Assembly (NCBI GenBank): GCA_963713605.1
Contig: CAVQMO010000004.1
Location: forward strand, 32,001-96,000
Reading direction: 5' to 3'
Source: an uncultured Nitrososphaerales archaeon
GTDB lineage: Archaea; Thermoproteota; Nitrososphaeria; Nitrososphaerales; Nitrososphaeraceae
Length of the DNA: 64,000 bases
The notes under the pieces were generated by a model. The model did no database searches, had not been told where the DNA came from, and worked only from the letters and a program-made list of their open reading frames with translations. Made by a program: the position numbers and the translations under genes. Below, piece by piece: positions 16,800 to 27,420 of the stretch; the first letter of the stretch is position 1; each line of letters begins with the position of its first letter.

Positions 16800-18116
16800 T
16801 CAATTATTGCCTCTTTCTATCGCTGAGGTGTCATTAGTTTTCTCTGAACTACGATTAAGTACTTTTGCAAATATCTTCGCTAATAAATTCGGATCCAAAT
16901 TTTGCTTTTCCAAATCTTTGTTTCTCATAATAGTTACATACTCTTTGAATTCCTTTTGAGGATCCTCTATCAGGAATTCTATATTATCAGCCAATGATTG
17001 GTCGTCGATGTTTTCTTGTTTGATATATTCAGGATAGTTTGGCCGATCTAGGATGAACTCAACAATATTGTAATCATTTGAATCTAAGGCTAGCTTTCTC
17101 AGGGCTGATTCCACCTCACCAATATTGAATGACGATCCATATGTTTTCTTACCCTTCAGAATGATTTTTACCCTTGCAGCAGTTGAATATTCATATCGTG
17201 TATTAAGCCCATGGGCATCAAAAGTATTTCTAACCCTCTTTATTATCTGGAAATTTGTATCCTCTGGGTAAATTTCAACTATATCAAAAATGATCCTTCT
17301 ATTTGATTGAATTTTCTTGGTAGTAATCCTTGGAGATGAATTTCCTTGTTCTAATTCGACCATAAGATATCCTTTTTCAGTATTAATCTCACTGAAATTC
17401 CATAATTCGGTTGACCCCGAATACCAGGCATGATCCGCCACCTTACGCATTTTGTGATCATCTCCCAGTGCAATGTACTGATAACTGCCTTTTAGAAAAT
17501 CTTCATGTAGTGTAGAATTCTCGATCATACCATGCGCCATGGCTATATTTATCAAATCAGAAGAAATAGAGTTATTCTGAACTTGAATCCAGTTTTTATA
17601 TATGGATTGCATACCCAGTGTGGACAGCGCCCGAGACTCAATTGAGGGATGCGTAATCACCCTCAGATTCAGATTATTAATGTCAATGAATAGAGGCTGT
17701 TGTGTTCTTAATGAGTCTCTTGCATCATAATGTGTGAATAAGTGGATATTATCGAAGGCAACTGGAAATACAGATAGAGTTGAACTACGATATTCCATGT
17801 ATCGTCCATGATTACCATCTATTATAATCAGAGGAATATTTGCATCATATAATTGCTTGAATGTCATTGCAGCAATTTTTCGTGCATACTCAGGAGGAGG
17901 ACTAGGATCGTAGCCAGCAGGGGTGTCAAAGAAGTCTCCGCAGTGTAGTATGACATCTGGCCTATTTCTAGCCTTATCTACTATTTCATTGACAAACTTG
18001 ATCCAAGCAGAGTGGAAGTCGTCTTCCAGTGGTCTTACTTCTTGGTTTACGATCCCAGAACGTGTTTGTCGAGGCCGACGACCAAGATGGGTATCAGAAA
18101 TATGTGCAATTTTCAT
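16800..18116 (-). CDS. mre11: Mre11/SbcD nuclease
   Basis: Phosphoesterase motifs SDTH, GDFFD, GNH, AHG, LGDDH, YSGS; lies 3 bp upstream of rad50. Confidence 0.92.
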   Translation of the reverse strand: MKIAHISDTHLGRRPRQTRSGIVNQEVRPLEDDFHSAWIKFVNEIVDKARNRPDVILHCGDFFDTPAGYDPSPPPEYARKIAAMTFKQLYDANIPLIIIDGNHGRYMEYRSSTLSVFPVAFDNIHLFTHYDARDSLRTQQPLFIDINNLNLRVITHPSIESRALSTLGMQSIYKNWIQVQNNSISSDLINIAMAHGMIENSTLHEDFLKGSYQYIALGDDHKMRKVADHAWYSGSTELWNFSEINTEKGYLMVELEQGNSSPRITTKKIQSNRRIIFDIVEIYPEDTNFQIIKRVRNTFDAHGLNTRYEYSTAARVKIILKGKKTYGSSFNIGEVESALRKLALDSNDYNIVEFILDRPNYPEYIKQENIDDQSLADNIEFLIEDPQKEFKEYVTIMRNKDLEKQNLDPNLLAKIFAKVLNRSSEKTNDTSAIERGNN

Positions 18117-23829: not shown

Positions 23830-24456
23830 TCATCTCTTTTTTGAGTTTTTTAATACTACGAATAATGCAGCAGGTAACGGATCTAAGGTGCCTTGATACA
23901 CCGTGTCCTTAATTTTTATGACTTTAAACGACTCTTTCTCGAATATTTCGCTTATCTTCTTCTTAGAAAACCTGTATGGTCCCCCTTCTCTTTTTTCATT
24001 AATACTAAAACATTTTAGGAACAGTATGTCATCCTCTTTGAGGATCCTTTTTATTTGCTTGACATATGTTAGCCTGTCTGAAGGATGTAGAACATGAAAA
24101 CATCCACGATCAAATATGTAATCGTATTCATCCTCCTTGAAATTAGAATGCAGAATATTATCGACCACAAAGCTGACATTCGGTTCGCTACCGTAAACCT
24201 CTTTTGCTCTATGAATTGCAGCTTGAGAAATATCTGAACCTGTCACCAAGTGTCCTTTCCTAGCAATCTGTACAGCTTGAGTAGCCGGACCTGTGCCAAG
24301 ATCAAGAAATCTCCCTTTGTGGAGAGCTTTTTGTTTCGATATCTCCTCTTCCAAATCAGAATCTAGTTTCTCATTGTACCATGGCATAGTTTCCACTTGC
24401 TGATTCTTATACATACTATCCCACTCCGGAAAACCTCTGGAATTGCTATCTATCAC
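23830..24456 (-). CDS. Class I SAM-dependent methyltransferase (TPMT-like)
   Basis: FLDLGTGPA, GSDIS, YIFDRGCFH. Confidence 0.9.
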   Translation of the reverse strand: MIDSNSRGFPEWDSMYKNQQVETMPWYNEKLDSDLEEEISKQKALHKGRFLDLGTGPATQAVQIARKGHLVTGSDISQAAIHRAKEVYGSEPNVSFVVDNILHSNFKEDEYDYIFDRGCFHVLHPSDRLTYVKQIKRILKEDDILFLKCFSINEKREGGPYRFSKKKISEIFEKESFKVIKIKDTVYQGTLDPLPAALFVVLKNSKKR

Positions 24457-24904
24457 TCGATGTGATTCTATTCATTAGTCTAATTTGTACCTATAGTAGT
24501 TAGAATTTCTGATTCCAGCCTACTGCCATTCAAAAGGTTTGTTTCATAAGAGAAAACTCGTATGCAAATTGGTATGATTATTGTCTTGATAGTAGTAAAA
24601 TAAGCCTATCATGCCAAGTCATAATATTTGTTCGTGTGGTCCGTGAGAACTGAGTTTTTTCTGCTACTCTCGTCATTGTCTCTCAATCTCAATCTAAGGT
24701 TTGAGAAATAAAGAAACTCCTATAACAAACTGTGGCTATAGTAGTCATGCTGCCATACCCGTATAGCAGCCAATCATCCTCGCAAGTTGACTAGTAGCCC
24801 AGTACTCCTACTGTCATAAACCCACTTGCATTGTAGGCATGCATAGTGACGGTAGATGGGACCTTTCAGCTTACGAGGAAGGTAGGAAAACAAAACAGAC
24901 AAAA

Positions 24905-25002
24905 AACGGAGACACGTCCAGGGACAAGTTCTTCCGGGGGAAATTAATCCCATCGGTTGATTGTACAGAATAAGGTGCGTGGGATCCCTGGCACGCGCAC
25001 AA
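24905..25002 (+). ncRNA. Putative pseudoknotted small RNA, array unit 1
   Basis: CCAGGGA (24918-24) is complementary to loop TCCCTGG (24985-91) of hairpin GTGCGTG/CACGCGC. Confidence 0.5.
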
Positions 25003-25108
25003 TTTCGTTATCAACACTATTTCTTAAGGTGTGAGTACGGTAAAAAAAGGAATCTAGAAGTGAATAATTCGACCTCTCCTATTCTTTCATTCTCTATATT
25101 TGAAAATC

Positions 25109-25125
25109 GTAGCTACGGATATAAA
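25109..25125 (+). promoter_or_regulatory. Putative promoter GTAGCTACG-GATATAAA for unit 2
   Basis: Palindrome plus TATA-like box, repeated at 25366-25382 at the same distance (44-45 bp) from CCAGG. Confidence 0.5.
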
Positions 25126-25149
25126 CCATGGAGACATATGTACTACTAC

Positions 25150-25256
25150 AAGTAAGCATCTTCCAGGAGAATCGTAGAATCGTGCCATCTACCATAAGGT
25201 GCCGAAATGGTTTCATCTTACACTGTGTGTGGGACTTCTGGCACACACACCTTTTT
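25150..25256 (+). ncRNA. Putative pseudoknotted small RNA, array unit 2
   Basis: CCAGGAG (25163-69) pairs with loop CTTCTGG (25235-41, one G-U); stem GTGTGTG/CACACAC; a T-run follows. Confidence 0.55.
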
Positions 25257-25365
25257 GTGATTATCTAACAGATAATGGGAACGATATTCTAAAGATGAAT
25301 AATTTAAAGTTGAATGAACCGACTCAGCAATGGATTGACATTCTCGTTCTCAATAATAGTAAAAA

Positions 25366-25382
25366 GTAGCTACGAATATAAA
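25366..25382 (+). promoter_or_regulatory. Putative promoter GTAGCTACG-AATATAAA for unit 3
   Basis: Homologue of 25109-25125. Confidence 0.5.
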
Positions 25383-25405
25383 TCCTGCAGCAAAACATAG
25401 GAATG

Positions 25406-25506
25406 CAAAGGGCATCTGCCAGGAGAATATTGCATCAGCAACCGGTTATCTGATGTCTTTTTGGCTGTACATTTTGCATGTGTGTGGGACTCCTGGCGCA
25501 CACATG
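25406..25506 (+). ncRNA. Putative pseudoknotted small RNA, array unit 3
   Basis: CCAGGAG (25419-25) pairs with loop CTCCTGG (25490-96); 10-bp stem CATGTGTGTG/CGCACACATG. Confidence 0.55.
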
Positions 25507-26147
25507 AATATATAATTTTCAATGGGACAAGAAAAACGTTAAGAATTGTTTAGCATACAAAACACTTACAGATAAGCATTCTCAATAATAGGAAAACGAA
25601 ATTTTATTTTCTCATGATGAGGCAAGTCTATCTCTTTCTTACCGAACTCATACTCATCAAGCTATCAGCATGCGAGACAACGAGAGGGCTAGGTTTGGAC
25701 TTCTATCCTTTTATGATTGAAATATGGCCTAGATTCAAGCCTTTGCTTACTAGGTTATTACTAGTGATAATAGTAATCAAAGCTTGAACCTTGTAATCAC
25801 TAATACTGCGATACAATTTATTTGTGTTCACATGACTATTATGTCGTCGAGTGTATTGGTGATGACTGTATATGCTATCGGCTTCTTACTTGCATTCTAT
25901 GCCCTTTTTGAAGTCAAAGTCATATATTAGTTGCAATTAATACTTGAGCCAGGGGATAACGTTATCATAGATTGGTGAAAGACTATTCCACTCTCGTCGA
26001 ACCAGTTTATCATATACGAAACGCTAATTGTTACTCCTCTATAATACGGAGCAATATAGCGAAAATGTAATGGTCGCATAATATCATCACACCTTTAAGA
26101 AATGAAAGGTGTAAATCCCCGAAAATACTAAAAATTTTATAGGAATT

Positions 26148-27420
26148 ATGAGTTTCAGAGCAAAAGAAGAAAGCCATTTTAGTCATAAGAAATCAAGACA
26201 AACAGAAAATGTGCTTGTGTTGCAAGGAGGGGGTTCTCTAGGAGCATTTGCGTGTGGTGTATTCAAAGCTTTGGTAAAAAAGAAAATAAGAATAGATATA
26301 GTCGCTGGCACATCCATGGGAGCCATTAATGGAGCTATAATTGTAGGAAGTAAAAGTGACCGTCCTGAGAATGACCTTGAAGAGTTTTGGTTAGAGATTG
26401 CAGAGAGCAATTATAAGATGATTCCCGATATCTATCTGATCGATTACGATATCCATAATCAGAGATATATACCAAAGCAAATATCTTCTGCTTCAGCCAA
26501 TGCTGCAATATTCGGAGTTCCAAAGGTGTTTATTCCAAGATGGTTGAAGCTACAACCTACTAAGCAGGAAGTATTGCCAGATGGCGTAGACTACGGACAA
26601 CGACCACCGCCGTATTTTGCTGACCCACGGGAGTGGACTTATCTATACGACCATTCGCCACTTGTAAAGACACTTGACAAATACATAGATTACAGCAAGA
26701 TTAATCTGGCCGCAACTAAAGAAGAGCTACCAGAAGTCCTTCGACTTATAATAACCTCAGTAGATGTCATGACTTCTAGACCACTTATATTCGATAATAC
26801 CAAAATGGAAATCAAAGCAAAACACATTCTAGCAAGCTCTGGCTATCCCATATATGGATTTCCTTGGATTGAGGTTGAAAAGGGAGTTTATGGATGGGAT
26901 GGTAGTCTGCTTAGCAATACCCCGGTAAGAGAAGTGACTTTCTGCATCCCCACGAAATGACAAAAATATCTTTATTGTAGAAAATTATACTCGAAATATT
27001 CACAGACTTCCTTCTAATATGGCAGAAGTTGAAAGTAGAGCTAAAGACATACTCTTTTCTGATAAGAATATGGACAATATCAAAATGTCTAGACTTATTA
27101 CCAGACAAATTCAACTGATAGAACGACTTTATGAAGTCTTTGATAAGCTAGTGGACCATTCAAGGCTCGATGCTAAAGAGGTAGAAAGGATAAAGGAAGA
27201 GTACAATACACTAATAGAAAACTATGGCGCAGTCATAAGATCAGTCACAAGAATAGTTAGAACCGACCTTGAATCTCCTTCCATATTACAGAATGCAGAT
27301 TTTTCTCTCAAGACAATTAAAGAGCTGAATAGGTACAAGGTGAGAGAAAAACACTCGAAGAAGTGGCATATTGTGATAATATACAGTATCAGTTTTAACA
27401 AAACAAAATGCTTCTCATAG
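26148..27420 (+). pseudogene. Patatin-like phospholipase with DUF3734-like C-terminus, frameshifted
   Basis: GGGSLG, GTSMG nucleophile motif, WDGSLLSNTP; frameshift near 26940 joins ORF 27019-27420. Confidence 0.85.

Follow-up and report, generated by a model that had tools for sequence, protein, structure and literature searches.

A genus-restricted, apparently mobile family of predicted pseudoknotted non-coding RNAs in Nitrososphaerales archaea

Described RNAs of comparable architecture

CsrB/RsmZ and 6S are abundant stand-alone RNAs that occur as several paralogues and bind protein through a conserved shape. Type III antitoxin arrays (ToxI-like) are composed of tandem pseudoknotted repeats co-transcribed with an adjacent toxin gene, and HDV-like ribozymes fold around an outer P1/P2 knot with P3, P1.1, P4 and J4/2 in the core. 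The aptamer of the ZTP (pfl) riboswitch is described as P1-J1/2-P2 followed by a variable linker and a small P3, the loop of which pairs with J1/2 (10.1101/521930). Sibling sRNAs, including NmsRA/B of Neisseria and LhrC of Listeria, are presented as homologous RNAs encoded both in tandem and at dispersed sites, with separate promoters (PMC5362039).

The RNAs described here form a real and, as far as searched, undescribed non-coding RNA family, confined to one genus of soil ammonia-oxidising Nitrososphaeraceae; they are predicted to be pseudoknotted and seem to be mobile. They appear to be the products of lineage-restricted, stand-alone genes, each copy with its own predicted archaeal promoter, and are very probably functional. 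By analogy, they resemble CsrB/RsmZ and 6S in their proposed mode of action and their paralogues, but share no homology with them, and no archaeal partner is known. The tandem pseudoknotted units recall ToxI-like arrays, but measure 105-255 nt, have separate promoters and ~80-nt spacers, and have no toxin gene beside them. At the gathering score, Rfam gives no match for the window (the whole 64,000-nt stretch of DNA analysed), consistent with the first reading, in which no known class was recognized; searches of the gap that holds the array return four chance-level matches (E 2-10), and those of seven loci at E up to 1 return none. The literature searched on ammonia-oxidising archaea (titles and abstract openings, with subscription journals mostly outside) contains no paper on such RNAs. 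A recent intergenic atlas of 5.14 million clusters spans GTDB archaea; its main text does not name this RNA group, and the atlas could contain these sequences (10.64898/2026.10.21.760802).

Genomic setting and repeated units

The array lies in a gap between positions 24456 and 26148 that was initially described as gene-free; its sole ORF of at least 60 aa is a 64-aa frame with a TTG start. It is bordered by two protein genes:

23830..24456, minus strand: left neighbour, SAM-dependent methyltransferase (Pfam Methyltransf_25)
26148..26960, plus strand: right neighbour, patatin-like protein (Pfam Patatin)

In relatives, neither the methyltransferase nor the patatin gene is linked to the array, and both are placed outside the system. 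The patatin-like ORF ends at 26960 and is followed by a second ORF (27019-27420), which may reflect a split gene or an assembly frameshift; the corresponding ORF of a relative (L206) is longer than that of the window. Elsewhere in the window, the minus strand of 16800-18116 encodes a calcineurin-like phosphoesterase that by look is Mre11-like.

Direct reading of the sequence bears out the repeated hairpin GTGYGTG-GGA-YYYCTGG-CRCRCRC at 24975, 25225 and 25480 (periods 250 and 255), as well as the complementarity of each loop to a 7-mer upstream within its own unit. The 7-mers CCAGGGA (24918), CCAGGAG (25163) and CCAGGAG (25419) pair with their own loops at 7/7 positions, at distances of 57, 62 and 61 nt from the hairpins of units 1, 2 and 3 respectively. 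Non-Watson-Crick pairs in the three units are G-U on the plus strand, suggestive of a plus-strand RNA. A descriptor of the knot that specifies no sequence matches eight sites in the 4.09-Mb genome, four of them from the RNA family (three within 505 nt), and 2, 0 and 1 sites in three block-shuffled genomes. A partial fourth block, also recognized at the outset, begins at 25577 and is 94% identical to 25347-25364 over 18 nt; further units occupy its place in the arrays of relatives.

25577..25596, plus strand: orphan upstream half of a fourth promoter, with neither a TATA box nor an RNA behind it

A repeated peptide was considered and rejected: the W-D-x-W frame of the hairpin has a stop in unit 1, and loop variants introduce further stops or a 1-nt deletion. 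No ORF is common to all 14 long RNAs, as expected from the original prediction, and no conserved small ORF was found on either strand.

Short RNAs

The three units were originally taken to be like RNAs of ~100 nt. This is upheld for units 2 and 3, which correspond to predicted RNAs of ~105 nt (type A), but not for unit 1, which is the tail of a second type of ~255 nt (type B). The transcript ends, strand and in vivo folds given below are predictions from sequence, as is protein binding. The elements of the short RNAs are as follows:

25086..25125, plus strand: promoter of unit 2 (role predicted), ATTCTC-N7-GAAAAT, 10 nt, GATATAAA
25145..25252, plus strand: short RNA (type A), unit 2; matches model R1 at 101 bits, as a training sequence of that model
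25156-25162 with 25196-25202, plus strand: P1 of unit 2, which encloses the knot strand and was missed in the first reading
25163-25169, plus strand: knot strand of unit 2, followed by the variable P2 and the linker
25225-25248, plus strand: P3 of unit 2, the 3' hairpin
25343..25382, plus strand: promoter of unit 3 (role predicted), differing by 18% on average in those few close relatives whose sequence extends over it
25400..25507, plus strand: short RNA (type A), unit 3; matches model R1 at 90 bits, as a training sequence of that model
25411-25416 with 25452-25457, plus strand: P1 of unit 3, likewise enclosing the knot strand and likewise missed
25419-25425, plus strand: knot strand of unit 3, CCAGGAG
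25480-25503, plus strand: P3 of unit 3, the 3' hairpin

The proposed promoter motif GTAGCTACG-RATATAAA is present, its TATA box lying 45 nt (unit 2) and 44 nt (unit 3) 5' of the 7-mer. Across the family, a TATA block is positioned 42-54 nt 5' of the knot strand in 26 of the 28 copies examined and is preceded by a conserved TTCTC-N6/7-GAAAAT. A matrix of the full promoter scores highly only at the four known promoters. A regulon defined by the promoter palindrome was considered and rejected, given 110 matches (93-114 in shuffles) and, upstream of ORFs, counts of 3 (against 5.2) and 5 (against 2.1). A scan for sigma-70 promoters and terminators, which is unsuited to archaea, gave chance counts. 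The right half of the unit 2 promoter, GA(A/G)AATCGTAG (25102-25112), recurs at 25167-25177 inside unit 2, just 3' of the knot strand, and the unit 2 RNA may carry an echo of its own promoter.

Short-type RNAs share a common order of elements. P1 is adjoined by the knot strand CCAG(G/A)AG, then AAU, a P2 hairpin of very variable length and the second strand of P1; a linker of 12-27 nt leads to P3, the loop of which comprises GGA and the second knot strand. In 15 short-type sequences, two-sided changes occur at four of the eight P1 pairs and at none of those of the knot and P3, which are 97% paired. Folding of units 2 and 3 with the knot left out is no better than that of shuffles (z 0.1 and -0.5). 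In four copies (L004, L025, L114 and L120), tetranucleotide runs of the GGTT, GACA and GGTC types expand within P2 or the A-rich linker, with the core kept.

The long RNA

Unit 1 has no TATA box at 45 nt. A separate, related promoter is predicted farther upstream and is followed by ~170 nt of conserved RNA 5' of the unit, which was overlooked in the first reading:

24687..24727, plus strand: promoter of the long RNA (role predicted), an element ending GAGAAAT, a 10-nt spacer and the TATA-like CTATAACA (24720-24727)
24747..25003, plus strand: long RNA (type B, ~255 nt), with ends predicted from the TATA spacing and a U-rich tail
24749..24770, plus strand: 5' hairpin, 89% of cells paired in 12 sequences, with no two-sided changes
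24777..24879, plus strand: long interrupted hairpin domain, two-sided changes at 2/10 pairs of the core helix
24880..24917, plus strand: A-rich single-stranded linker, more variable than any other segment of the long RNA (variation at 35% of sites among nine close relatives)
24918..24924, plus strand: 5' strand of the unit 1 pseudoknot, CCAGGGA, pairing 7/7 with the loop at 24985-24991
24975..24998, plus strand: P3 hairpin of unit 1, with GGA and the 3' knot strand in its loop (from sequence and the knot descriptor)

Homology with relatives starts at ~24684 (query positions 83-92), at the type B promoter, where many columns are invariant across 14 type B sequences and the mean difference in nine close relatives is 1.2%. 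None of 200 shuffles folds as well as the 5' domain (24747-24880), whichever strand is taken (z -3.3, and -4.0 on the opposite strand); covariation in this domain is weak, with 84% of cells paired and 16 of 500 shuffles equally high. The knot helix of unit 1 is also predicted by RNAalifold from the 14 type B sequences. In the long type, the knot module stands without P1, and P3 or most of the knot has been lost in some copies. Arrays tend to open with a long copy and continue with short ones.

Sequencing runs provide some indication of expression. Of 23 runs listed, 14 are recorded as RNA, and coverage was read from four, each from a different study. The long RNA is covered in all four RNA-library runs. 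The six contigs are confined to 24758-25041, and all but one stop no later than 24992; contig cover is absent from the flanks and from units 2 and 3. This cover fits a discrete long RNA, the contigs carrying no strand, ends or level and the libraries possibly containing DNA. RNAs of ~105 nt are easily lost from such libraries, so the lack of cover over units 2 and 3 is not evidence of silence. One RNA-library contig has a 13-nt insertion at 24816, a local duplication in a related strain.

Support for the pseudoknot

Pairing in the common 3' module was assessed from 80 distinct hairpin sequences, for 62 of which the 5' strand could be located by its own context. Six loci (L057, L083, L090, L099, L110 and L141) were left out before pair counting as chance or out-of-genus matches; of these, L099 and L083 were read in sequence, and a further three that are GC-rich were assessed by appearance. 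A further probable chance match (L127) is counted among the 80 and not among the 62. In 29 representatives with less than 90% identity, one row of which was mis-registered by the search pattern, 192 of 203 knot cells are paired, compared to 187.6 with shuffled partners (30/3000 shuffles as high). The corresponding values for P3 are 165 of 174 cells and 162.5 (8/3000 as high).

The first four knot pairs are almost invariant among these representatives; the fifth occurs as G-U, G-C and A-U, and the sixth is broken in 6/29. G-U combinations number 27 against 12 A-C, mostly at one position. Double changes exist, as the original prediction held, but comparison of the three units alone overstates the covariation, which is absent from the knot and P3 of the 15 short-type sequences. 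Given that the double changes arise mainly from the split between types A and B, they represent roughly a single event for each pair. Sequence comparison gives the knot good support over 5 bp, more through invariance than through covariation, which is limited since the stems are invariant and the related sequences are not independent.

Distribution and movement between lineages

The genome that contains the window carries six hairpins, comprising the three of the array and one each on contigs C1, C3 and C4. The C4 copy is truncated at its 5' end and lies behind an AAA ATPase gene; a seventh copy, on C1, is decayed and lacks the hairpin. Homologues are also present in relatives. The hairpin pattern matches 8 of 101 genomes of the family Nitrososphaeraceae, all from the genus of the window, and a covariance model built from 15 short copies finds 2-11 matches per genome in 8 of the 14 genus genomes; outside the genus, it matches 1 of 127 family genomes, weakly and with no knot strand. 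A model of the long-RNA 5' domain matches 7 of 146 family genomes, again all within the genus. In a GTDB scan, 17 of 18 loci come from Nitrososphaerales records, and a metagenome scan gave 54 loci. The carrier counts, both models and alignments A1-A4 include an unpublished genome, G035 (L007, L013, L017, L052, L055 and L065), on which alone no claim depends. With up to three mismatches allowed, the hairpin is absent from five genus genomes, of which two are 97% complete, indicating that the RNA family is dispensable.

Several candidate members were rejected. The metagenome locus L099 is GC-rich and pairs at 7/7 knot positions, but sits inside a 553-aa ORF on the opposite strand, and L083 lies in GC-rich, coding-like DNA. 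Four viral matches to the 5' motif have no family hairpin behind it, and the G009 match is a hairpin without a knot strand. G102 contains only part of the long RNA, located after a stop codon. BLAST searches of plasmids gave no match and those of phages E 0.3 at best, which is chance level; viral contigs searched for the family hairpin have none. An identity as SRP RNA or RNase P RNA was also discarded, as the genome has its own copies of these elsewhere, on C1, above cut-off. Membership of the archaeal C/D and H/ACA guides is not supported: the conserved columns lack box C/D, a K-turn and a terminal ACA after a single hairpin, and Rfam gives no match.

Conservation is higher in the RNA cores and promoters than in the spacers. 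In nine close relatives, divergence from the window is 0-5% for the type B promoter, for P3 and the middle of unit 1 and for the unit 2 core, and 0-7% over the cores and this promoter as a whole, compared to 16-20% for the spacers. Between genomes G000 and G067, the RNAs differ by 2-5% and the spacers by 11-14%, whereas divergence in a core gene reaches 41% over 112 four-fold sites. The genes that flank the array resemble other genomes best. On a one-locus tree, hairpin-free genomes, including near kin of G000, are interspersed among carriers. The low spacer divergence relative to the core gene, together with the affinities of the flanks, points to lateral transfer of the array, a comparison that relies on one core locus and on near-neutral spacers.

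Neighbours vary from copy to copy, and decayed or truncated copies are present in the family. Truncated copies at L018, L020, L092, L108 and L174 lie directly against the ends of protein genes or pieces of them, which points to heavy shuffling of DNA over short distances in the genus. Beside the C1 copy (L008:1037-1385), a stretch of ~340 nt has copies of 89-96% identity in G000 (C12), G067 (two), G091 and G102, and may be a MITE-like element. Features of MITEs were looked for at the RNA copies themselves, where no terminal inverted repeats, target duplications or clean empty site were seen and the flanks are patchworks. Related ORFs at L217:3170-3904 and L202:4196-4744, near 2 of 21 loci, have no Pfam hit and resemble tyrosine-recombinase fragments.

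Possible functions

The family has a common 3' module, a 7-bp hairpin with a 10-nt loop that pairs back on an upstream CCAG-purine strand, carried on two unrelated bodies, one short (~105-180 nt) and one long (~255 nt). A role as protein-binding decoys or scaffolds is put forward tentatively, by analogy: protein docking fits best with a conserved 3' module on two bodies, the tolerance of large insertions elsewhere, the many copies with like promoters and the lack of a target or conserved neighbour. In addition, the stems are near-invariant in sequence beyond the needs of pairing, which fits protein recognition. Under this model, the near-invariant knot would be the docking site for a host protein and might additionally shield the 3' end, and the RNAs would act as decoys or scaffolds whose dose grows with copy number. 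Arrays, with the long type leading and short types after, would have undergone duplication and fragmentation and spread from one lineage to another as DNA.

The genomic neighbourhoods contain no obvious partner protein, as anticipated: at most 3 of 21 share any protein family (150 ORFs). Pfam searches of 45 and 103 neighbours (the latter out of 125 representatives), taking the best five matches each, identified metabolic, transport and regulatory families. A role as a leader was dismissed, with only 1 of 80 copies having a same-strand ORF of at least 100 aa within 150 nt; 42 have none in the available flank.

It is unlikely, if conceivable, that the RNAs regulate mRNAs in trans as base-pairing sibling sRNAs, with the knot sequestering the seed until a target or protein frees it. 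Several homologous RNA copies, some arrayed in one intergenic region and others dispersed, with separate promoters, reproduce the sibling-sRNA layout as described (PMC5362039), and most short copies have AGGAG in the knot strand, which complements 5 nt at the 3' end of 16S rRNA. However, CCAGAAG and CCAGGGA copies lack AGGAG, and in a crude ORF set (3537 ORFs) the surroundings of start codons are not enriched in complements of either the loop (0, with 1.0 expected) or the knot strand (6, with 6.3 expected). Antisense matches of the variable cores, raised in the original prediction, did not stand out in simple scans: those in the genome and rRNA are no better than shuffled controls, the best genome matches are not clearly above shuffles, and the longest contiguous rRNA duplex is 8-10 nt, equal to shuffles. 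The family further differs from the sibling sRNAs, as these are portrayed, in being archaeal and in conserving a pseudoknot instead of an open anti-SD seed, as well as in its two body types with one 3' module, its lack of detected antisense targets and its patchy, apparently transferred distribution.

A selfish or addiction cassette, whether an RNA antitoxin, an RNA toxin or a passenger on shuffled DNA, would be kept by mobility over host benefit. The patchy tree, the contrast between spacers and core gene, the varying neighbours and the truncated and decayed copies would all suit such an element. Nevertheless, toxin, transposase and reverse transcriptase families are absent from the best five Pfam matches per neighbour, no small ORF is conserved, neither terminal repeats nor a clean empty site were seen, and the plasmid, phage and viral-contig searches were negative or at chance level; this explanation is thus improbable.

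About as doubtful is a ligand- or ion-binding aptamer with a ZTP-like fold, acting as a shape switch without control of a downstream gene. Thanks to the extra helix P1, the short type (units 2 and 3) has the same helix order as the ZTP aptamer as described (10.1101/521930). In 11 of the 24 representatives, a second linker stretch, YYYUUGG, can pair with at least five knot-strand bases and so compete for that strand (shuffled mean 3.6, maximum 9, the paralogues not being independent). In contrast to the ZTP fold, the short-type knot strand abuts P1 directly, with no unpaired bases between them for a pocket and a Watson-Crick junction (C-G in 15/15). The family also has another sequence, no Rfam pfl match and no terminator overlap; it is multicopy and stand-alone and is not situated in purine- or folate-gene leaders. 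P1 is missing from the long type, and an expression platform and downstream gene are absent. Equally speculative is a laterally traded, universal docking or kissing unit, by which short and long paralogues would pair with each other or load on one protein, giving soil nitrifiers a new class of abundant RNA particle.

A ribozyme of a new class is highly improbable. The compact knotted core has invariant bases, and its strand order and long variable insert match the outer P1/P2 knot of HDV-like ribozymes, but the sequence offers only GGA at the place of P3 and nothing for P1.1, P4 or J4/2; Rfam ribozyme models are unmatched, and with a separate promoter for each unit there is no multimer to cut. 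Guide RNAs for an RNA-guided protein encoded elsewhere, of the kind found in CRISPR, TIGR, OMEGA or bridge-RNA systems, are scarcely credible: a fixed module with variable parts in an array invites the idea, yet the supposedly swappable core of the original prediction is the second P1 strand plus a hairpin and linker, homologous among paralogues, diverging gradually between them and kept in orthologues (1% difference in the unit 2 linker in close relatives), its genome and rRNA targets are not above shuffles, and no Cas, TnpB, IscB or IS110 family is among the best five Pfam matches per neighbour.

If the RNAs are protein- or ligand-binding, they would provide an archaeal case of a riboswitch-like fold that operates as a free RNA, and non-coding RNA arrays would be shown to move between nitrifier lineages; if they are passengers, they would still be an unannotated transcript that merits an Rfam entry. 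The defined fold, the promoters and the presence of the long member in RNA libraries of several studies make the family testable now, with the long RNA as the best handle. Among the paralogues, one group with a 9-nt loop (L052, from the unpublished genome G035, L054, L058, L059 and L060) is arranged tail to tail with a DtxR/MntR-type repressor gene, which adjoins genes for a ZIP transporter and a multicopper oxidase.
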